Source of the DNA: a virus
Taxonomy: Duplodnaviria; Caudoviricetes
Length of the DNA stretch: 64,000 nt
Reading direction: 5' to 3' (one strand)
IMG/VR virus record: IMGVR_UViG_3300044652_000022
Coordinates: 1 to 64,000 of that record
Below, piece by piece: positions 333-47,730 of the stretch. How positions within the stretch are numbered: the stretch's first letter is position 1; each line of letters starts with the position of its first letter. The notes beneath the pieces are model-generated. The model made no database searches, had not been told where the DNA came from, and saw only the letters and a list, made by a program, of their open reading frames with translations. A program made the translations under genes and the position numbers.

Positions 333-1256
333 CTAAAAAACAATCAGATCATTCGCCGCTTGCTTCAGGTTCTGACGATTCCCCAAATAGCGCTCCGTAG
401 TCTGGATCGAGGCGTGCCCGAGCAACATCTGGATCTGGTCGAGGTCACCGCCGCCGGCCTTGCAGAGTTTAGCGCACGTTCGGCGCAGGTCATGCGGCGC
501 TAATTTCGGCACGCCGATCCGATTCCCATACCTGCGCACCAGTTCCACAATCGTCTGCTCTAGAATCGGTCGTCCGGCGACACAGCCGCGCTTGTCCACC
601 ACGCGAAAAACGTAGGGACATTCTGGGAAGGCGTGCAACGACACCGCCGTCCATACGTCGATCAAATCCTTCGCCCACGGCGGAATCGGAACGGTGCGCA
701 CGCGCTGTCCCTTGCCCACGATATCCAGCACCACCCACCGACCTTCGCGCATCGCCAAATGGCGGTAGGTCAAGGCGGCGAGTTCGCTGCGCCGCAGCCC
801 GCACCCAATCAGCGTTCCCAGCACCGCCTTATCGCGTTTGCCGCGCAATGAGGAATCGGGCGCGGCGAGGATCGCGCGCACCTGTTCCGCTGTCAACCAA
901 TTACCCACCCGCACGCCTTTCAACTCCACGCTCTTTACTCGTCTAGCGTGCATGGCGCTGGCGAGCGGGATCAATTGCGCGTCTGCCATTTCCTCTACCA
1001 GCTTGCGCAGGGCGGTCAGCCGCAAATTGATAGAGGCTGGCGCGTACTTCTGTGACGCGAGGAAAGCCTTGTACGACAGGAGCAAGGCTTTGGTCATCGG
1101 TGCGGCGAGCGACAGCGCTAACCACCAGGCGAAAAAATCGTCCAAGGCGCGCCCGTAGGCGTATTTCGAGTGCGGCGAGTTTACACTGTCCACCACGATC
1201 TTCCGAAGGTGCTGGAAAATGTCGCGAGCAGGAGCGGAGGAAACGGCTGGTGTCAT
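333..1256 (-). CDS. int: Tyrosine recombinase/integrase (XerD-like, ~307 aa)
   Basis: Catalytic motifs GLRRSE, K, HDLRR, LGH and TERY. Start placed at MTPAVSS (1256) because the upstream in-frame extension overlaps an intergenic inverted repeat. Confidence 0.9.
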   Translation of the reverse strand: MTPAVSSAPARDIFQHLRKIVVDSVNSPHSKYAYGRALDDFFAWWLALSLAAPMTKALLLSYKAFLASQKYAPASINLRLTALRKLVEEMADAQLIPLASAMHARRVKSVELKGVRVGNWLTAEQVRAILAAPDSSLRGKRDKAVLGTLIGCGLRRSELAALTYRHLAMREGRWVVLDIVGKGQRVRTVPIPPWAKDLIDVWTAVSLHAFPECPYVFRVVDKRGCVAGRPILEQTIVELVRRYGNRIGVPKLAPHDLRRTCAKLCKAGGGDLDQIQMLLGHASIQTTERYLGNRQNLKQAANDLIVF

Positions 1257-1334
1257 AGCAACACATATAACGCTTGTTACCGCAGGTCTGGGCGTTGACT
1301 TCCCTGCAAAACTCGCGTTACGACGGTGCTGCTT

Positions 1335-1406
1335 CGGCTCTGCTCGCTTCCGCTGTCGGAAAGGGCTGTGCAGGTCCAGGAGGCGTCGGAAAATCGAGCA
1401 GCGCCG
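1335..1406. repeat. Imperfect inverted repeat built from two copies of the dispersed GCAG-CC core
   Basis: cggctctgctcg (1335-1346) / cgagcagcgccg (1395-1406), with an inner ttccg/cggaa pair. Confidence 0.7.
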
Positions 1407-1463
1407 ATCTAATGAGCCGACCTGTCCTGACATTTTGACCGATTCCTGTACAATTCAGTCGGA

Positions 1464-26463: not shown

Positions 26464-27908
26464 TTCGGTGGGTAAGCGCGACAAAGTGGGTGGTGTCCTC
26501 GCTAGCAAATGGAAAGGTTTATTTTCTGGCTTCGCAGGGACGGTGGCTGCGTCGTCACACCAAAGCCCTCCGATTCGATTCGCAGCAGGACGCAGAGGAC
26601 GTGGCGGGGCGGGTACAGGGAAAAGCGCTTCCTGTAAAGGTGCGACAGGCGGATTCGTTTCCACCAAAGAAAACGCATGACGCCTACCGTGCTGATGCTG
26701 TATCGGTGTTTGGGGCAGGGTACACGCCAGACTACTACGACCAGAACTTCGTTGGGTACATGCGCCGCGCCTATTGCGACGGATACGAGGACGGCAAAAA
26801 AGCAGAACGCAACCGCATCCGCAATATGCAGCGACGACAGAAAAAGGTGGCGGGCAAATGAGCCTCGGTCAAGATTACCTTTTGCCTTGCGATCCGCGAA
26901 CGTTCCGCGATGCAAAAACCGGACGATCTGTCATTGGCCCGCGGCGCTGCATTTTCGTCCACCAGCCAAAACACGTTCCAGGCAAGGTGTTCGTCTGTCC
27001 AGATTGCAAATCCGAGTACAAAGGCGTGTCAAACGGATGGGAGCCCAAAAATGAGAGTCGCTAGAACGTCCAATTACGGCGAAGAGGATCTCACCTTCCG
27101 CGCTGAAACGCCCGAGGAGGAAGGCCACCTTGCGCAATGCTACCAGCGAATGATTCAGGAAGGGACGACGCACGTACCAGCCCGCCTGCTCGAATTGCTG
27201 GAAGAAAAAGGTTATCGGTTGTCTTTAGTCGAACCCGAGGAGGAAAAATGCCCCGAACCAAAGAACGAATCAAAATCCTGAACCGCTTCCAAATGTCCAA
27301 GTACTCGCGATCGTTCGATCCGCGGCGCTATGCGGAGGAAACGAAGTTCCCGGTTACGTTTTCGCTTGTCCACAACGACGGCCCAGACGTTCGCTGCATG
27401 GTGGCGATATCGGACACGTCGGAACTGGCGATTACCATGCCGCTAGACGAGTTCAACGCCCTCCCGGTCGTGGAGGTGTAGCGGTGGCCGTCCTCCAGCC
27501 TGAGGTCCATGCCTATTATCTGCGCACGGGCTTCCTCGGGTATCTGTCGCGTCCGTATCGCCCAGAGGCCGTCGAGATTCGACGCATCCAGCAAGCTGAC
27601 CTGTCCTGGAAATGGATGGTTAAGGAGCCAGGTATCGAAGGCGGCGCTGTCCTCAATCGCTTGCTGGAATGGGAATATCAGAGTAGCCCGTCCAACCGCA
27701 CCACCGACGACTTGCAGCGGACGCGCTATGTATCCATGGAGGAGGCTCTGCAATACGTGGGCTGGTGGATTGAGCACGTCGTTTATGGTTGTACGCATCC
27801 ACCAGCCTGCGAACGCTGCAATTGGTGCGGGTGGAGGAAAACATGACGGACGCCTTCTGGAGATTTGTGCTGGTCGTGGTAGCGTTCGCAGGCGGCGTGC
27901 TGGTCGGG

Positions 27909-28189
27909 TGGGCAGTTCGCGATTTTCAGCATTGGTGCGAAAAGGAGCGAGGTCGATGATCGAAGCGTTGACGATTTCGGTGGCGGCGGTGTCTTGGGCA
28001 GTGGTCGTGGTGATTTTTCTGCGCATGGTAAATCGGTGGTCGCGAGGTGTCAAATGAAGGTCCGAGTGACGGCAGGCGAGTTGATCAAGGCGCTGGAGGC
28101 GGCGGTGGGTACAGAGAAAACTCCTATCACGCTGATTCTTCTGGGCAGTTCGCGATTTTCAGCATTGGTGCGAAAAGGCGCGAGGTCGA
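27909..28189 (+). repeat. 48-bp direct repeat, one mismatch (27909-27956 and 28142-28189)
   Basis: tgggcagttcgcgattttcagcattggtgcgaaaagg(a/c)gcgaggtcga. Confidence 0.95.
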
Positions 28190-28249
28190 AGGAGTTCGCC
28201 GAGTTGTTTGCGGAGTTCTTTTTTCACGCTGTCTTGAACGCCGGCGGAA

Positions 28250-28459
28250 ATGAAAGTCCGCGTAACGGCTAACGAGCTTACCCAGGCGTTGCGGTTGCTG
28301 GGTGTGGAGGACAATCCCATCACGCTGATTGACGAGGATGGGATGGAGTGGACGCTGGATCTTGGGAACAGAATGCCAGGTCCGCTTTTTCGAATGGGCT
28401 CGGTTTACCTGTCCATTCGACCGTACACGAACATGGACGCGGCGGCGGAGGGCGAGTAG
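28250..28459 (+). CDS. Hypothetical protein (N-terminal paralog at 28054)
   Basis: MKVRVTA(N/G)EL at both starts. Confidence 0.65.
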   Translation: MKVRVTANELTQALRLLGVEDNPITLIDEDGMEWTLDLGNRMPGPLFRMGSVYLSIRPYTNMDAAAEGE

Positions 28460-28527
28460 TTCTGATACGCTTGAAACGAAACCGGCAGAATAGCCGGTCA
28501 ACCTTAAAACGAAGAACGGGAGAAACG

Positions 28528-29141: not shown

Positions 29142-29169
29142 TTGACAAAGTGCAGAGTTTCGCTACAAT
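29142..29169 (+). promoter_or_regulatory. Sigma70 promoter with an inverted CCTATAGTT box upstream (29113-29121)
   Basis: TTGACA-16-TACAAT. Confidence 0.75.
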
Positions 29170-29339: not shown

Positions 29340-29687
29340 GTGATTTTACCAAAGGAACGCACGTTACACTACCTGCGGATTCATGGCGCCAAAAACGTAG
29401 TAGTTCGGCTCGCCTCGGGCTCCCCTATGCAAGTAAATCCGGACGATCTCGAACTGCTGATCCGACAGGATCTTGCCTACGGCGTCGGCAACCGTCGGCG
29501 TCTAAGCTACATCAAGCTTCGCTTTGAAAATCGAGTTTCCCACCTGAGGGCCCTGAAGGTTTACCGACCGTATCATTCATTGCGCGCTGAGGACAGCAAG
29601 ACCTGGCAACAGGTTGGAACGAGCTTCGAACATCACCACCAGCATTGCGAGGCGTTTAGTCCCAGCAACCGCACCACCTTCACCTGA
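29340..29687 (+). CDS. Hypothetical protein, paralog A
   Basis: MILPKERTLHYLR..GVGN..LSY..HCEAFSP; GGAGG RBS. Confidence 0.75.
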   Translation: MILPKERTLHYLRIHGAKNVVVRLASGSPMQVNPDDLELLIRQDLAYGVGNRRRLSYIKLRFENRVSHLRALKVYRPYHSLRAEDSKTWQQVGTSFEHHHQHCEAFSPSNRTTFT

Positions 29688-29694
29688 CAACCGC

Positions 29695-29730
29695 GCGGCG
29701 CCGTTCAGTTTTGAGCGGCTCCGCTTTTTT
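29695..29730 (+). terminator. Rho-independent terminator
   Basis: gcggcgccgttca-gttt-tgagcggctccgc followed by T6. Confidence 0.8.
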
Positions 29731-29755: not shown

Positions 29756-29847
29756 TCGAGGTGCTGTCTGCCGCAAGTCCTTGAAATGTTAGGATTTTGA
29801 CGGTATGCAAATATTGGTTGACAGCACCTCGAAAATGTCCCTAAAAT
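29756..29847 (+). promoter_or_regulatory. Sigma70 promoter overlapped by a perfect 13-bp inverted repeat
   Basis: TTGACA(29818)-18-TAAAAT; tcgaggtgctgtc/gacagcacctcga. Confidence 0.7.
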
Positions 29848-29979: not shown

Positions 29980-30333
29980 ATGATTCTCCCCAGAGAAAAA
30001 ACACTTCATTACCTGCGGTACTGGCGCGGCGACAACCCACCAACGGTGCGCACGCCAGACGGAAAGCCGATCCCGTTCCCGCAGGATGACCTGCCTGCCT
30101 TGATTCAAGAGGGACTGGCGGTGGGGGTAGGCAACGAGCGCAAGCTCTCCTACGTCCTGCTGAAGTTCTTCTCCCGCATATCCCACCATCTTTCGCAGCC
30201 GCGAAACCGCCCGCTACCTTCCTACTCGTCCGAAGCCAGCCGCACGTGGCTGGAATGGGCTCCCGGGCAATACGAGCCGCACCCGTACCACTGCGCGGCG
30301 TTCTCACCGGAAAATAAAGAAACCTTCGTCTAG
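29980..30333 (+). CDS. Hypothetical protein, paralog B
   Basis: MILPREKTLHYLR..GVGN..LSY..HCAAFSP. Confidence 0.75.
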   Translation: MILPREKTLHYLRYWRGDNPPTVRTPDGKPIPFPQDDLPALIQEGLAVGVGNERKLSYVLLKFFSRISHHLSQPRNRPLPSYSSEASRTWLEWAPGQYEPHPYHCAAFSPENKETFV

Positions 30334-30349
30334 GAGCGATCTGGAAAAA

Positions 30350-30667
30350 ATGCGCAACGTCAACGACCACCAGGGCATCGCCAAGCAGCCGACCGTCACC
30401 GTGCTAGACGAACCCGCCGTCGGTGAGACGCTATCGCGCATCTACCAGTTCAAGCATAGTTCAGGCTCCAGCATTCTTCACTTCGCCGACCGCGACCACG
30501 AAGGCGTCACGAACGAATCGGTCCTGGCTGTCCTGATTGACAGGCTCCGCTCGGCTCAGGCTGGGCCCACAGGCTGTCGCGAGTACGCCATGGCCTTGCT
30601 GAAGATGGAAGAGGCGATGATGTGGCTGCACAGAAAATCGGCGCCTGTCGCAGCCCAAGCAAAATAG
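30350..30667 (+). CDS. Tad1-like anti-defence sponge protein (putative)
   Basis: GVTNESVLAVLIDRLRSAQAGP..CREYAMALLKMEEAMMWL resembles the Tad1 helical core as I recall it. Confidence 0.65.
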   Translation: MRNVNDHQGIAKQPTVTVLDEPAVGETLSRIYQFKHSSGSSILHFADRDHEGVTNESVLAVLIDRLRSAQAGPTGCREYAMALLKMEEAMMWLHRKSAPVAAQAK

Positions 30668-32791: not shown

Positions 32792-33136
32792 ATGCCCCAG
32801 GCCCCATACAAGCCGACGAAGGCAGATCGGCAGACGGTAAAAAATTTAGCGATCCTCGGATTGAAGGAAGAGGAGATTGCGAAGTGTCTCGGCACTCAAG
32901 GGATCTCGGTCCCGACGATGCGGAAATACTACGAGTACGAACTCTACCGCTACCCGAAGGAGATGTTCGGGAAGATCGCGCAGACGGCAGCACAGGCGGC
33001 AATGTCAGGGGACAAAACGATGATGATCTTCGTCCTCAAGTGTCGGGCTGGCTGGAAGGAATCGGACTCGGTGCAGTTGAACGGCAAGGTGGAGTTGGTG
33101 AAGCGAGTTGTCGGTGTTGACGAAAAGGATATCTGA
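32792..33136 (+). CDS. terS: Terminase small subunit
   Basis: N-terminal HTH (EEEIAKCLG..ISVPTMRKYY), MIFVLKCRAGWKE; upstream of TerL. Confidence 0.75.
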   Translation: MPQAPYKPTKADRQTVKNLAILGLKEEEIAKCLGTQGISVPTMRKYYEYELYRYPKEMFGKIAQTAAQAAMSGDKTMMIFVLKCRAGWKESDSVQLNGKVELVKRVVGVDEKDI

Positions 33137-35064: not shown

Positions 35065-35140
35065 TGGGGCATAGCTCAAGCGGCAGAGCGCCGGACCTTG
35101 ATTCCGGAGGTTGCAGGTTCGAAGCCTGCTGCCCCAGCCA
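35065..35140 (+). tRNA. tRNA-Gln(UUG)
   Basis: 76 nt; TGGGGCA/TGCCCCA acceptor stem, D arm GCTC/GAGC, anticodon arm CCGGA-CCTTGAT-TCCGG, TTCGAAG loop, encoded CCA. Confidence 0.9.
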
Positions 35141-35167
35141 GAAAAAAATCCTTCAGGTAACCCTCCC

Positions 35168-36721
35168 GTGCCCAAGTCCGTCGCCCCTCCGCCTCCCAAA
35201 AAGCAAAAGTACATCCCGCGGAAACAGTTCCTCGCGCAAAAACACGCCGGCGTGATCCCTGGCAGCGTCCAGTTCATCGACTACAAGCCGCGCGGCGCCA
35301 TCAAGCAAATTTTCAGCCTAAGGATCCCGGAATGGGTGCTGTCGGGACCAGCCGGGACTGGGAAGTCTCGCGGCTGTCTAGAAAAAGCGCACTGGATGCT
35401 GGAGAAGTATCCAAACGCGCGCGGGCTGATGGTGCGCAAGACGCGGAACAGCATGAACCAGTCCTGCATCGTCACGTTCGAAAACAAAGTCCTCCCCACC
35501 CCAACCTACGTTCCCTTCCACACGACCGATCAGGAATACCGCTATCCCAACGGCTCGATATTCGCCGTAGCCGGGATCGACGACCCGAAGAAAATCTATT
35601 CGTCAGAGTGGGACTTCTGTTACGTCAACCAGGCGGAGGAACTGACCGAGGACGATTGGGAGAACATCAAATCCCGGCTCCGCAACTGGAAGATGCCGTA
35701 TCAATCGTTGTTTGCGGACTGCAACCCGGACGCGCCTTCGCACTGGATTCGGACGCGCGCCGCCACCGGGATGCTGCAACTGCTCGAAAGCCGCCACGAG
35801 GATAACCCGGAACTGTGGGACGAGGTAAACAAGTGCTGGACGGAGCGAGGGCGGCAGTACGTTTTAGAGATCCTCGATAAACTTACCGGCGTCCGCTACA
35901 AGCGTTTGCGGCTCGGGCAGTGGGCGGCGGCGGAAGGGACGGTGTACGAGGACGTCTGGGACCGCGCCGTCCATATTATTGATCGCTTTTATCCCAACGT
36001 TCCTTTGGACCGCGATCAAGTCCCACCCGACTGGCCGCGGTACTGGGTGATTGATTTTGGCTATACGAATCCGTTCGTCTGGCAGGCTTGGGCGGAGGAC
36101 CCCGACGGGCGCCTGATCCGCTACAAGGAAATCTACCACACAAAACGATTGGTCGAGGACCACGCCCGCCAGATCCTCGAGGTCACGAAATACGATCCGA
36201 AACCGAAACTGATCGTATGCGACCACGACGCCGAAGACCGAGCGACGTTAGAAAAGTACCTCGGGATGCCAACCAAGGCGGCGTGGAAGTCTGTGAGCCC
36301 TGGCATTCAAGCGGTGGCGGCGAGACTGCGAGTCCAGGACGACGGCAAACCGCGTTTGATGTACATGCGCGATTCGGTCATCGAACTCGACCAGGAACTC
36401 CTCCGCCAGCACCTCCCGACCTCGACCGAGGATGAATACGACGTTTACGCCTGGGATATCGCGACGGCAGGCAAACCGCGCAAGCGAGGAATCGGCGAGG
36501 AGCCAATCAAGAAATACGACCACGGGATGGACGATACGCGGTACATCGTCACGTACATCGACAAGACCTGGGAGATCAAGCCGCACCTGTTCAAGATGAT
36601 TTCCGTGACCAAGTCAGGATCCGACACGCCAGACAATCTGCACTCCGGAAGCGGCTGGCGGATGGGAAACACGAACGCTCCAAGCAAGTTTGGGGGTGGG
36701 AGCGGGAGGTTTCGTGAATAA
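35168..36721 (+). CDS. terL: Terminase large subunit (PBSX-like)
   Basis: GPAGTGKS Walker A, DCNP, IDFGYTNP nuclease motif, DHGMDDTRY. Confidence 0.93.
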   Translation: MPKSVAPPPPKKQKYIPRKQFLAQKHAGVIPGSVQFIDYKPRGAIKQIFSLRIPEWVLSGPAGTGKSRGCLEKAHWMLEKYPNARGLMVRKTRNSMNQSCIVTFENKVLPTPTYVPFHTTDQEYRYPNGSIFAVAGIDDPKKIYSSEWDFCYVNQAEELTEDDWENIKSRLRNWKMPYQSLFADCNPDAPSHWIRTRAATGMLQLLESRHEDNPELWDEVNKCWTERGRQYVLEILDKLTGVRYKRLRLGQWAAAEGTVYEDVWDRAVHIIDRFYPNVPLDRDQVPPDWPRYWVIDFGYTNPFVWQAWAEDPDGRLIRYKEIYHTKRLVEDHARQILEVTKYDPKPKLIVCDHDAEDRATLEKYLGMPTKAAWKSVSPGIQAVAARLRVQDDGKPRLMYMRDSVIELDQELLRQHLPTSTEDEYDVYAWDIATAGKPRKRGIGEEPIKKYDHGMDDTRYIVTYIDKTWEIKPHLFKMISVTKSGSDTPDNLHSGSGWRMGNTNAPSKFGGGSGRFRE

Positions 36722-38343: not shown

Positions 38344-39837
38344 ATGGCGCTAATCGACCGCGTGTCCAAACTCATCCCCTCGGCGTCGTCGCGGATGGGC
38401 ATTTTAGGCAATAGCGCCGCCGTCGCTCTTCCAGGTCGCGGTGGCGTGCCCGACATGCCGCGTCCGCGTCCCTTCGACGAACTGGGCGTGTCCGGCTTGA
38501 ATCGGATGCGCGGCATCGGGACGGTCAATGAAGAATGGCTGATTGACCTGTCCGGGAATCGGTGGAAGCAAATCTACCGCGAGATGCGCGACAACGATCC
38601 CGTTATCGGTGCGATGTTCTTCGCTCTGGAGACCATCCTCCGCAAAGCGGAATGGTCCGTCGAACCAGCCAAGGGACCCGACGGCGACAACATCGCCCAG
38701 TTCATCCGCGACTGCATGGACGACATGTCGCATACGTGGGAGGACTTTATTGCCGAGTGCGTCTCCCAGTTCACCTTCGGATTCGCGCTATTCGAGACCG
38801 TATACAAGCGCCGCAAGGGGATGAACGGAAAGCACGCCTCCCGGTTTGGCGACGGGCTGATTGGCTGGCGCAAATTCGCGCCTCGCGCCCAGGAGTCTAT
38901 CGTGTACTGGGTTTGGGACGAGGAAGGCGGGTTGCAGGGAGCGCAGCAGCTAGCTCCGCCCGACTACAAGCTCTGCACTCTCCCAATTGAAAAACTGATG
39001 CTCTTCCGCACCACCTCGCTGAAGAACAACCCGGAGGGAAGGTCCATTCTGCGGAACTGCTATCGCCCGTGGTTCTTCAAGCGCCGCATCGAAGAGGTGG
39101 AAGGGATCGGGATCGAGCGAGACCTCTGCGGGTTGCCGGTCCTCTATGCGACCGAAGAGGCCCTTGGGCAAATGGGTGGTGAGAACGCCGCGCGGACTCT
39201 TGTGCGGAACATTCGCGTGGACGACCAAGCTGGCGTCGTTCTCCCTCAGGCCTTCGACGACAAAGGCAATCCGCTGGTCAAGCTGGAACTTTTAAAAGCT
39301 GCCGGAGCCAAACAGACGGACCCGGACAAGACCATCACGCGGTACAATCAGGATATTTTGAACACGATGCTCGCCGGGTTCATTCAATTCGGCCAGACAC
39401 CCACCGGGTCGCGGTCGTTGCACGTTTCCGCCACCGAAATCTTCTCGCTCGCGATTACGACGTTCATGGACGGCGTGGCTGCGGTGATGAACCGCTACGC
39501 CATCCCGCGCCTGATGGCGCTGAATCAGATGGATCTGGAAAAAGCGCCGCGCCTGATCCCAGGTGAAATCGGCGTCCGCGATTTAGAAGAGCTTGCGGAC
39601 TTCGTGCAAAAGCTGTCCCAGGCTGGGTTGACGTTCTGGGATCCGCCAACCGTCGATTACCTGCGCAAGATGGCGCGGTTGCCCAAGGCGCCGCCCGAGG
39701 AAGCCATGCCGCCCGCGGCGCAGAATCCCGAAGGGGAACCGCAGCCTGGACAATTGCCTCCAGGACAAGCGCCCGCCGGGTCTGAAGGGCCTCAGGATCA
39801 GGCGGAGGCGCAGCGGCAGCTGGAGGGCGTGGCGTGA
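38344..39837 (+). CDS. Portal protein (DUF935/Mu gp29-like)
   Basis: YREMRDNDPVIG, NPEGRSILRNCY, ERDLCGLP; position after TerL. Confidence 0.9.
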   Translation: MALIDRVSKLIPSASSRMGILGNSAAVALPGRGGVPDMPRPRPFDELGVSGLNRMRGIGTVNEEWLIDLSGNRWKQIYREMRDNDPVIGAMFFALETILRKAEWSVEPAKGPDGDNIAQFIRDCMDDMSHTWEDFIAECVSQFTFGFALFETVYKRRKGMNGKHASRFGDGLIGWRKFAPRAQESIVYWVWDEEGGLQGAQQLAPPDYKLCTLPIEKLMLFRTTSLKNNPEGRSILRNCYRPWFFKRRIEEVEGIGIERDLCGLPVLYATEEALGQMGGENAARTLVRNIRVDDQAGVVLPQAFDDKGNPLVKLELLKAAGAKQTDPDKTITRYNQDILNTMLAGFIQFGQTPTGSRSLHVSATEIFSLAITTFMDGVAAVMNRYAIPRLMALNQMDLEKAPRLIPGEIGVRDLEELADFVQKLSQAGLTFWDPPTVDYLRKMARLPKAPPEEAMPPAAQNPEGEPQPGQLPPGQAPAGSEGPQDQAEAQRQLEGVA

Positions 39838-44649: not shown

Positions 44650-47600
44650 GTGACGACTATCCCTCCCCCAGTGTTTGAAAAGATCCCGGACCCGAAGGCG
44701 CAGTCGCTCTTAAAGCAGTTTGTGGCGCGTCATTTGAACAGCGGAGCTTCGGAGCTGGTCGCCTACGTGAAGGCGTATCGAGCACTCGAGGAAGCCGGGT
44801 ACGCGCGCGGCGACGACGGGACCTGGGTCCTGAAGGACTCGCCCACCATCTCCGACGTGCATGTTCCTGGCATCTTCCGCTTCCGTCTGCCGCGTCGTCG
44901 CCGCAAGCCCAAAAAAGACAAGCCAGCAATTCTGAAGCGCATCAGCGGCAACTCGGATATCGGGTTGAACGCCAAAGGCTCTGAGGACGCCATGCGCCTT
45001 GGGGAGCGGTTAGCGGCGCGTGGGGGGCTGGATGTGCTTTACGCAAGTCCAGTGGCGCGCGCCGCCCAGACCGCTGAAGCCTTGACCGAAGCCGATCCGT
45101 CCTTGACGTACCAGCTGAACAGCGCCCTGGCGCCCTGGCACCTGGGAAAGTACGAAGGGCGGATGCCCGAAGAGGTTGGGACGAAAATCGACCGCCTGAT
45201 CCAGAACCCGGACGACCGTCCTCCAGGCAACGGGCAGGATGCGGTGCCAGGTGAATCTTTCAACGATTTCAAAAAACGGATTATTACCTTCGTGCATGAC
45301 GCCGGGATCGAATGGTCCAAGCATCCCGATATGCGCCTCGGGATCGTGATGCACTCGCGCCCGCTCGATCTGATAATGGACTGGATCGCGGCTGGTGGTC
45401 CTCCTCCAGACTCGTCTTTCCGTCTGCGTCATACGCAGGAACACAACGACAATTTGCAGCATGGATCGGTCTGGGTCTGGCGCCTCAACGATATCGAGAC
45501 GCAGCAGGTGGACCTGAACCTCAACGATCCGCTGCCTGGCGGCGTGTACCTGATCCTGCATTGTCTGACGGACGACGACCCGGACGACGGGATCGAACTC
45601 GACGCTACCGAAAAACGCTACGTCCCTCCTATCGAAGCCATCCGCGATGCCCAGGCTTCGTTCGAGGCTGGGTTCACGGTTCCTGAAATCACGGAAAAGC
45701 TGGCTTCGGGTGAAGGACTGACGCTCGATGAGGTCGAGCGGATATACGAGTTCTTCGGGACCGCCTCCAACGATATCGAAAAGCGCGCCTGGGGCGGACC
45801 CTTCGCCGCCAAGTGGGTGACGCGCGTTATCCGCAAGGCGTACACGGTCGAGGAGGACTTTGAAAAGGCAGATGGGCAGTGGGTAACTGTTCATGGTGTG
45901 CATGTATTCATCGACAAAAATGGTGTTATCCAAAAAGGTCCTCGCACGCTGATTGGGCAACACCATACCGCTGTTACCCACAAGGACGTTGACGCTGTTT
46001 TCGAGGACAAAACGCCGCCTTCAATTCCCCCTAAAGGTTCTCCTGTAGAGGCTTACGCAGAGAACCTTCCGCATTTTGCGTCTTTCTACCTAAAGGATCA
46101 GGAGGCTGTTAAAACACTTCGGGATGCCTACTTCGCGCAGGAGCATGGTATTGCACCGCCCACAGAGGCAGAAAGACAGTGGACAGAGCACAACCAAAAG
46201 TTTGACCTGAACGATCCTGCCGTAAAAGCCCAGCAGGAGTTCGTGCAGGCGTGGATGCGGCATTCCTACCCTGATGGAAAGGTCAAGCTGTACAGAGCCC
46301 AATTGGGAGAGCCTCCTAGCAATCAGGTTTCTTACGCCCACGACCGAACGTCCGCCGTCGAGTTCAAGGAAACAGCGCTACAGGGACAGGGCAAGATCGT
46401 TTCGCACACGATCAAGGTCTCCGACATTGTGAATGCGTCGCCCTTTATCGGCTACCTGGGGCGAGCCGATGAGCGTGAAGTCGTCGTAAACCGTTCGGTA
46501 AAGAAAAACGACGCGGTAGAAAAACAAGGCGGCGGGATCATGGTCGCGTTTACCGTGTCCCCAGCGCTTGCGGACTTGCTGCGTGTAGACGACGGCGAGG
46601 ACTCGGACGACATGCACATTACGCTGGCGTACCTGGGCCAGGTAGATGAAGTGGATCCCGAGCGCCTCGCCTTTCTCGAGGACGCGCTGGAAGGCTTCGG
46701 GTTGACGCATGGGCCAATGACCGGCGACATTTCGGGACCTGCTCGATTCGCTGCAACGAAGCACAGCGACGACAAGGACGTGGCGATAGCGCTGTTCAAT
46801 TCCCCAACCATCCAGGAGTTCCGGAACGAACTCGTCCAGACGATTGAAGCGCTGGGACTGGAGGTAAAAAAGAACTTCGGGTACACGCCGCATATCACGC
46901 TGGCGTACATCAGCCCGGACGAGGACATGCCCGTCCAGCGCATCGACCCGGTCAAGGTGACGTTCGATCAAATCACGTTGTACGTTGGCGGCGAGCGAAC
47001 GGACTTCGATCTGGTGGGATACGCAGAGCCAGTCACCAAGGCTACCGCCGTGGACGAAGGCACCTGGGTGACGATCAATGGCCAGCATGTTTTGATCGGT
47101 GCGAACGGAGAGATCCTGCGCGGGAATCCCAAGGTACTTGGACAGCCCAAGCAAGGTGACCTGCCGCTCCAGCCGGCGATGAAGTTGACGCCGGTAAATG
47201 AAAAAGCCTTCAACGGGAAGCAAATCGAGGTCCAGCACAAGCTCTCTAAACTCGAAACCGGCAAGACAGCAGAGGAAGCCGTCCTCGCGCATTTCCACCA
47301 GCAAGGGCTGACGGACGCGCGTCCGCTGAACGAAAAGCACACGAACTTCCCTATCGACCTCGTCCAGGACCATCAAGCCATCGAGGTCAAAGGCGGGCTG
47401 GTGTCGAATAGCAAAGCCGCGCAGCAGTGGCGTGCGACTATCGGACAGCCAGGCAAGACGGAAACGGCGTGGCTGAAGCAAGCCGGGAAGGAAGAAAAAG
47501 CGGCGTGGAATGATCGCAAGTCCCAGGAGATCCTGAAGCGCAAGGCGGACGCTGTGAAGGAACTCTCCAAGGAGCACGGAGTCAAATTCAAGGGGTACAC

Positions 47601-47730
47601 AATGACCTCGATTATCAACCCCGACACCAAGACCATCGACCTGTATAAATTCGAGGGCTTCCACCTCCGCATCCCGTGGAACTCACCGTCCGCGAAAGCC
47701 GCGTACGTCGGAACATTCCGGTATCAATAA
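44650..47730 (+). CDS. Polyvalent multidomain head-associated protein
   Basis: ChaB-like, His-phosphatase-like, ART-like, 2H phosphoesterase (two HITL motifs) and PD-(D/E)xK (IDLV..IEVK) segments. Confidence 0.85.
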   Translation: MTTIPPPVFEKIPDPKAQSLLKQFVARHLNSGASELVAYVKAYRALEEAGYARGDDGTWVLKDSPTISDVHVPGIFRFRLPRRRRKPKKDKPAILKRISGNSDIGLNAKGSEDAMRLGERLAARGGLDVLYASPVARAAQTAEALTEADPSLTYQLNSALAPWHLGKYEGRMPEEVGTKIDRLIQNPDDRPPGNGQDAVPGESFNDFKKRIITFVHDAGIEWSKHPDMRLGIVMHSRPLDLIMDWIAAGGPPPDSSFRLRHTQEHNDNLQHGSVWVWRLNDIETQQVDLNLNDPLPGGVYLILHCLTDDDPDDGIELDATEKRYVPPIEAIRDAQASFEAGFTVPEITEKLASGEGLTLDEVERIYEFFGTASNDIEKRAWGGPFAAKWVTRVIRKAYTVEEDFEKADGQWVTVHGVHVFIDKNGVIQKGPRTLIGQHHTAVTHKDVDAVFEDKTPPSIPPKGSPVEAYAENLPHFASFYLKDQEAVKTLRDAYFAQEHGIAPPTEAERQWTEHNQKFDLNDPAVKAQQEFVQAWMRHSYPDGKVKLYRAQLGEPPSNQVSYAHDRTSAVEFKETALQGQGKIVSHTIKVSDIVNASPFIGYLGRADEREVVVNRSVKKNDAVEKQGGGIMVAFTVSPALADLLRVDDGEDSDDMHITLAYLGQVDEVDPERLAFLEDALEGFGLTHGPMTGDISGPARFAATKHSDDKDVAIALFNSPTIQEFRNELVQTIEALGLEVKKNFGYTPHITLAYISPDEDMPVQRIDPVKVTFDQITLYVGGERTDFDLVGYAEPVTKATAVDEGTWVTINGQHVLIGANGEILRGNPKVLGQPKQGDLPLQPAMKLTPVNEKAFNGKQIEVQHKLSKLETGKTAEEAVLAHFHQQGLTDARPLNEKHTNFPIDLVQDHQAIEVKGGLVSNSKAAQQWRATIGQPGKTETAWLKQAGKEEKAAWNDRKSQEILKRKADAVKELSKEHGVKFKGYTMTSIINPDTKTIDLYKFEGFHLRIPWNSPSAKAAYVGTFRYQ

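Follow-up and report, generated by a model that had tools for sequence, protein, structure and literature searches.

A strongly diverged phage Tad1 homolog with a largely substituted gcADPR pocket

The DNA analysed here (the window, 64,000 nucleotides) comes from a virus of the Caudoviricetes (Duplodnaviria) and corresponds to positions 1 to 64,000 of IMG/VR virus record IMGVR_UViG_3300044652_000022, a linear record of 75,153 bp that is 79% complete according to CheckV. The GC content is ~58%, and almost all genes lie on the plus strand. At 30350-30667, among small ORFans upstream of the small terminase gene, an open reading frame encodes a 105-aa Tad1-like protein. The landmarks of the contig and the features around this gene are as follows.

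333-1433, minus strand: integrase
29700-29719: terminator-like hairpin, upstream of the promoter at 29818-29847
29818-29847, plus strand: putative sigma-70-like promoter, TTGACA-N18-TAAAAT, an 11/12 match to the consensus
29980-30333, plus strand: upstream co-directional ORFan of 117 aa, a paralog of the ORFan at 29340-29687
30350-30667, plus strand: Tad1-family ORF, 105 aa plus a TAG stop (protein P0001)
32792-33136: small terminase (TerS)
35111-36721: large terminase (TerL)
38344-39837: portal (497 aa)

Together with a helicase that is apparently split in two and head proteins that include a Mu-F-like one, the integrase, TerL and portal indicate a temperate tailed phage. Among named genomes, relatives of the portal reach only ~40-45% identity and come from MAGs of Clostridia, Acidobacteriota and Gammaproteobacteria. 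In phages with 65-69% identical portals, we found no Tad1 homolog within 10 kb of the portal, from which we conclude that the Tad1-like gene is accessory, the usual situation for anti-defence genes. The contig contains no second gene of the Tad1/Acb2 type, and none of the neighbouring genes except TerS has a Pfam or PHROG annotation.

Several other features of this phage and its relatives were recorded. A tRNA-Gln gene (anticodon TTG; 35065-35140, plus strand) overlaps the annotated 5' end of TerL (35111, TTG start), whose true start is probably further downstream. Four of the related portals (P0295, P0319, P0324 and P0325; 815-863 aa) carry a LAGLIDADG/intein-type insertion (PF14528) that is absent from the 497-aa portal here. 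A 1026-aa ORF at 44650-47730 (plus strand), which precedes the head protease region, has a segment (aa 607-802) that resembles RNA ligases/2H phosphoesterases, and ORFs in the same place beside an S78 protease in related phages (L003, 15729-19697; L006, 16135-19746) contain ADP-ribosyltransferase, His-phosphatase, 2',5'-RNA-ligase and Zeta-toxin/AAA_33 modules; such ORFs look like virion-packaged effector polyproteins.

The sigma-70-like promoter at 29818-29847 is not followed by any terminator-like site on the plus strand up to 33200, the end of the scanned region. A transcription unit that starts there would likely take in the ORFan at 29980-30333, which is probably co-transcribed with the Tad1-like gene, then the Tad1-like gene itself and small ORFans, and end at TerS. 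The ORFan at 29980-30333 and its tandem paralog at 29340-29687 (117 and 115 aa; 46% identical, E = 3e-34) have no Pfam or PHROG match. Each is preceded by a near-consensus sigma-70-like promoter (29818-29847 and 29142-29169, respectively), and the hairpin at 29700-29719 separates the two, of which the 117-aa ORFan lies directly upstream of the Tad1-like gene. Elsewhere in the phage, the 9-mer CTATAGTTT occurs as 13 exact plus-strand copies in the early region (2712-25417), and 18 matches vs. 3.3 expected were found when up to one mismatch was allowed. This box is absent from both promoters next to the Tad1-like gene, a distribution that suggests two promoter classes. Further upstream (region 27509-28460, plus strand), two short ORFs, at 27994-28272 and 28250-28459, have near-identical peptides of the form MKVRVTA.EL..AL, either internally or at their start; SSRFSALVRKGARS is present twice in overlapping ORFs, which points to a short direct DNA duplication.

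The Tad1-like ORF is intact. Its ATG, the earliest start codon of a 167-codon open frame, stands 16 nt past the TAG stop of the upstream ORF and is preceded by GGAG at 30333-30336 and an A-rich stretch, and its codon usage resembles that of its neighbours. The protein is encoded as a stand-alone ORF without a propeptide and is made up of the following parts.

30350-30487, plus strand: N-terminal beta-sheet domain (aa 1-46), aligned to positions 5-60 of a query-free Tad1 profile
30416-30439, plus strand: replaced beta2-beta3 pocket loop, AVGETLSR for GPGGAxH, in which H29 of CbTad1 corresponds to R30
30482-30502, plus strand: shortened beta4-alpha1 loop, FAD-RDHE for FQKGARKEEKSQH in the HMM alignment
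30503-30640, plus strand: Acb2/Tad1 helical hairpin (aa 52-97), from Pfam, phmmer and VIA-align
30635-30664, plus strand: short non-homologous C-terminal tail, KSAPVAAQAK, with the last 13 profile positions unmatched

The MRxxxDH and VLDEP motifs are kept in the beta-sheet domain, and the hairpin retains R65, Q70, C76, R77, E78, K85, E87, E88, M91 and W92. In an AlphaFold2 model built on the homolog alignment (pLDDT 88, pTM 0.79), the protein folds into four strands (residues 2-4, 15-18, 32-36 and 39-43) and two helices (55-71 and 77-103), the second of which runs on through the tail to residue 103.

By descent and fold, this protein is a member of the Tad1 family, homologous over its whole length. 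The hairpin matched Pfam PF24729 (Acb2/Tad1 hairpin; aa 59-95) with 27.7 bits, just above the cut-off of 27, and the protein matched phrog_2428 (1.4e-11). The initial annotation had recognised the helical core from a Tad1 sequence string; that string is real CbTad1 sequence, and among PDB sequences phmmer matched the protein to CbTad1 (7UAV, 8KBE-H; 1.7e-8) and CmTad1 (8KBB; 7.5e-8), with residues 47-96 aligned ungapped to CbTad1 60-109 (E = 1.7e-8). An exhaustive HMMER search of 1.84 billion representative proteins returned 621 matches, the best non-self match at 6.7e-12, with several alignments of ~37-41% identity that extended from residue 1-4 to residue 97. A profile built from 93 homologs without the query gave 88.5 bits and placed residues 1-98 on profile positions 5-114 of 127, showing that the N-terminal sheet domain is homologous too. 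The Foldseek comparison of the model with PDB structures agreed: ranks 1-18 were all Tad1 (probability 1.0, best E 6e-5), nothing else was significant, and the matches in BFVD were 'Acb2/Tad1 hairpin domain' proteins. With VIA-align, the hairpin superposed on Tad1 chains with an rmsd of 1.0-1.6 A over 51-55 residues (Z 5.5-6.3). The global TM-score of the monomer model to Tad1 was only ~0.48, because the orientation of sheet to hairpin in the monomer model differs from that in the crystal protomers, which are interlocked in dimers. NCBIfam and PADLOC searches gave no match to the protein.

The PF24729 hairpin is held in common with Acb2 (anti-CBASS 2), which by analogy also has a trinucleotide site on the hexamer three-fold axis. 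The Acb2 protomer is small and all-helical, without an N-terminal beta-sheet domain; unlike it, the Tad1-like protein has the four-stranded N-terminal domain of the Tad1 type, and its alignment with the Tad1 profile begins at residue 1. Membership of the Acb2 family was considered and not adopted, since only the common Pfam hairpin matches and the N-terminal sheet is Tad1-type. No Acb2 chain appeared among the PDB sequence, profile or structural matches, an absence that does not exclude distant kinship.

When the Tad1 family profile was compared with the PDB, Tad1 chains were matched over their full length (2.5e-33), and beyond them a single further match was significant, the C-terminal half of PhiKZ gp184 (PDB 8Y6V chain I, residues 101-227; E = 1.4e-20). 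PhiKZ gp184 is a protease-processed inner-capsid vertex protein, so a Tad1-homologous domain is packaged in the head of a jumbo phage. Among the HMMER matches, P0010, P0016, P0053 and P0113 (273-587 aa) have a Tad1-like hairpin at the C-terminus, indicating that fused or multi-domain forms of the sponge domain are common in metagenomes. Both the gp184 domain and the many homologs fused to other domains lend some credit to the idea that the Tad1 fold has a non-sponge function here, for example protein binding or a virion-associated role. We consider such a role extremely improbable for the present gene, which stands by itself as a 105-aa ORF, has small early or accessory ORFans as neighbours, lies outside the head module and encodes no propeptide.

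CbTad1, the Thoeris anti-defence 1 protein of a Clostridium botulinum prophage (PDB 7UAV, 7UAW, 8SMD, 8KBE-8KBH), is like the present protein in being small, phage-encoded and composed of an N-terminal antiparallel sheet and two long helices. Full-length identity to CbTad1 chains is ~26-32% in the Foldseek alignments, and D77, R78, Q83, G85, P86, R90, E91, M104 and W105 of CbTad1 are conserved. The two differ in length (105 aa vs. ~123 aa), in the loops and in the tail. The GPGG loop and the Arg-rich tail after the MW motif had been described as replaced and the C-terminus as truncated, and our alignments bear this out. Where CbTad1 has G23-P-G-G-A-Y-H29, the Tad1-like protein has A23-V-G-E-T-L-S-R30, with AVGET standing for G23-A27 and LSR for Y28-H29. 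The tail NRRVEDRIERNVLGTNT of CbTad1 is replaced by HRKSAPVAAQAK, which is non-homologous, and the lid-type tail RTxDRxxRGVEGT is absent. Beyond the conserved Trp there are 13 residues, compared to a near-invariant 19 in the family (both the 5th and the 95th percentile are 19), and only three of 200 homologs have 13 or fewer. A frameshifted tail was ruled out, as neither of the other two frames encodes an RGVEG-like remnant at a suitable spacing.

The ligand pocket was compared residue by residue. Hairpin numbering was transferred by adding 13 (CbTad1) or 11 (CmTad1) to the position in the Tad1-like protein, and it was checked on Q8, L13, H29, R57, F82, R90, N92, T97, R109 and R113 of the CbTad1 chain sequence and against the residue numbers of the PDB entry itself. 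In CbTad1 bound to 1''-2' gcADPR, the adenine is contacted by F82 and R109 through stacking and by N92 at its Hoogsteen edge; F87 supports the ribose of the adenosine, the ribose hydroxyls are bound by H29, G55, R78 and N122, and the beta4-alpha1 loop and a lid of residues 116-122 close over the pocket (Leavitt et al., bioRxiv 10.1101/2022.05.03.490397). The beta4-alpha1 loop moves to seal the pocket, and its R57 binds the diphosphate (Leavitt et al., bioRxiv 10.1101/2022.05.03.490397; Li et al., bioRxiv 10.1101/2023.11.15.567273). Only one of the 11 gcADPR contacts, R78 (R65), is kept in the Tad1-like protein, and the other ten are substituted or deleted. F82 corresponds to A69, N92 to Y79, F87 to T74, H29 to R30, R113 to V100 and R109, conservatively, to K96; G55 and R57 lie inside the five-residue deletion of the beta4-alpha1 loop (FQKGARKE to FAD), and G120 and N122 are absent with the lid. 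Two of the four pocket loops are thus replaced or shortened.

The compounds gcADPR and 2',3'-cGAMP occupy the same Tad1 pocket, and the F82A/N92A and R109A/R113A double mutants of CbTad1 show severely reduced binding of both (Li et al., bioRxiv 10.1101/2023.11.15.567273). All four of these positions are changed together in the Tad1-like protein. The divergence therefore goes beyond the tail and loop to which the initial annotation had drawn attention, since core pocket residues inside the matching helices are changed too. Its suggestion that the ligand range may differ gains support from F82A, F87T, N92Y, R109K, R113V, H29R and the five-residue loop deletion; indeed, with core pocket residues, H29 and the beta4-alpha1 loop all changed, canonical binding of gcADPR and cGAMP appears not just modified but unlikely, and the protein probably captures a different molecule or none at all. 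Clear family membership, the retained R78 and the conservative change of R109 to Lys would suit a canonical Tad1, able despite the changes to sequester gcADPR and cGAMP-type dinucleotides and to inhibit type I Thoeris. This is very improbable, however, as either double mutant alone severely cuts binding in CbTad1 and F87, H29, the R57 loop and the lid residues G120 and N122 are lost as well.

Tad1 has a second binding system, which depends on its oligomer. In CmTad1 from Clostridioides mangenotii (PDB 8KBB-8KBD), a hexamer with a cA3/cAAG site, the hexamer interface involves R88, K96, T95, Q98, E99, M102, W103 and K106, the cyclic-trinucleotide site on the three-fold axis is formed by R88, T95, C87, A91 and M92, and the equivalent site of CbTad1 consists of R90 and T97 with the hydrophobic residues C89, A93 and C94 (Li et al., bioRxiv 10.1101/2023.11.15.567273). 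Most of these residues are identical in the Tad1-like protein: R88 (R77), K96 (K85), E99 (E88), M102 (M91), W103 (W92), C87 (C76), A91 (A80) and M92 (M81). Conservative replacements are found at Q98 (E87) and K106 (R95). The one changed residue is T95 (T97 in CbTad1): in CmTad1 it forms a hydrogen bond to the trinucleotide phosphate, and here it is replaced by L84. Substitution of the same residue by Ala in CbTad1 markedly lowers cA3 binding (Li et al., bioRxiv 10.1101/2023.11.15.567273). As judged from these residues, of the two Tad1 binding systems the trinucleotide site is almost intact and the gcADPR pocket is almost erased.

Conservation was scored at 13 functional columns across 214 single-domain homologs. 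In most of them, 11-13 of the positions are kept; the Tad1-like protein keeps two (R78 and R90), the lowest number of all, followed by P0099 with three and P0133 and P0151 with four each. The residues it has lost are otherwise strongly conserved, F82 being Phe in 200, N92 Asn in 208, R109 Arg in 207 and R113 Arg in 205 of the 214 homologs. By residue content, its pocket loss is the most complete among the homologs measured. Site-substituted Tad1 variants are already known, though uncharacterised, given that substitutions affect the gcADPR/dinucleotide site in 12% and the trinucleotide site in 6% of Tad1 orthologs (Li et al., bioRxiv 10.1101/2023.11.15.567273). Among columns conserved in at least 80% of homologs, two ligand contacts were kept and seven changed, compared to 21 kept and eight changed among the remaining columns (Fisher p = 0.016), and five of those eight belong to the lid or a loop. 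This concentration of changes on ligand contacts argues against random decay.

The protein stands alone among available sequences. No ortholog was found in the 1.84 billion representative proteins, in the IMG/VR scan or in GenBank phages by tblastn; the best non-self representative protein (57% identity) covers the hairpin only, and a word-based search for close relatives returned only the protein itself. The tblastn search gave just a weak N-terminal match, to the 'ABC transporter ATPase' of Agrobacterium phages OLIVR5/6 (27% identity, E = 7e-3). In a FastTree phylogeny of the 214 sequences, its terminal branch was 1.10 vs. a median of 0.44 (rank 196 of 214). A singleton without orthologs on a long terminal branch, with damage to both known sites (F82A, N92Y, R113V and loss of the lid at one, T97L at the other), could be a decaying relic, that is, an inactive Tad1 remnant under relaxed selection that binds no signal. 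We regard this as rather improbable. The ORF is intact without a frameshift and has the codon usage of its neighbours, it is part of an operon-like array behind a near-consensus promoter, 21 of 29 highly conserved non-contact columns are kept, with five of the eight changed ones in the lid or loop, and the model is confident (pLDDT 88). Random decay would not be expected to spare the core and the interface.

The other pocket-degenerate Tad1 homologs, P0133/P0151 and P0099, are likewise tail-less or lid-less with several pocket substitutions, but they are only 36-49% identical to the Tad1-like protein. A clade shared with these variants was looked for and rejected: a search seeded with P0001, P0133 and P0099 added only P0151, and the tree grouped none of them with the query.

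The substitutions single out ligand contacts and spare the fold core, which could also mean that the dimer-interface pocket has been rebuilt, so that Y79, R30, R48, K96 and the kept R65 recognise some other immune signal. Candidate ligands are a further ADPR derivative, a cyclic mononucleotide and an undescribed signal. The aromatic Y79 adjoins the position of the lost F82, basic residues remain around the site, and the N92Y change is also present in P0133 and P0151, both of them tail-less. Ligand switching is known from sponge families, and of 84 sponge homologs tested, 19 inhibited none of seven systems (sponge-diversity study). Rebuilding might also serve to avoid decoy nucleotides. Panoptes, a decoy-based system, is triggered by CbTad1 and ColiTad1, probably because they bind 2',3'-c-di-AMP (PMC12657218); this provides a selective reason to lose dinucleotide binding, and the sponge-diversity study stresses high ligand specificity on account of decoy-based defence. 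Against such a re-tooled pocket, the lid and one sealing loop are missing, making full enclosure of a ligand in the manner of Tad1 unlikely, and there is no clade with the same pocket, the query being placed apart from P0133, P0151 and P0099 in the tree. We consider a rebuilt pocket unlikely. It is similarly doubtful that the pocket was rebuilt or closed to yield either a protein that sequesters a signal bound by no known sponge or a 'stealth' Tad1, which may have kept the trinucleotide site and shed dinucleotide and gcADPR binding, and so avoid tripping decoy surveillance such as Panoptes.

The explanation to which we incline, with only slightly more conviction than doubt, is an oligomer of Tad1 fold in which canonical binding of gcADPR and dinucleotides is lost and of which, if it is still a sponge, trinucleotide binding would be the likeliest remaining activity. 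The gene is a genuine, strongly diverged Tad1 descendant carried as an accessory gene of an uncultivated temperate phage. From the retained interface residues, we infer that the oligomer (a trimer of dimers) still assembles. By their residues, its six dimer-interface pockets for gcADPR and cGAMP are dismantled, so that canonical sequestration of gcADPR or cyclic dinucleotides would be lost, and its two trinucleotide sites would be kept, perhaps weakened. If the protein is an anti-defence sponge, the three-fold site would bind molecules of the cA3/cAAG type, and the target would be CBASS with NucC-type effectors. Two observations weigh against this trinucleotide-binding oligomer. The residue corresponding to T97 is Leu, so the trinucleotide site may be impaired too, with weaker binding of cyclic trinucleotides as a result; and the terminal branch is long, with no ortholog among the 1.84 billion representatives.

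Sponges have revealed immune messengers before, Tad1 leading to gcADPR and MoTad2 to His-ADPR. Roughly one in four of the sponge homologs tested failed to inhibit any known system (sponge-diversity study). The protein described here has the homology and fold of Tad1 and, by its residues, lacks the pocket and lid hallmarks of a gcADPR sponge; it represents a Tad1 scaffold with core and interface intact at the sequence level and the classic pocket most altered among more than 200 relatives. Because no orthologs were found, we view it as an experimental lead and not as a result. It may be a single-site sponge for trinucleotides only, and would in that case be a candidate natural example of phages trimming sponge specificity under the pressure of decoy-based defence. 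If inactive, the gene would document the decay of sponge genes, and if the reading of a novel signal is true, the protein is a candidate bait for a new bacterial immune signal.
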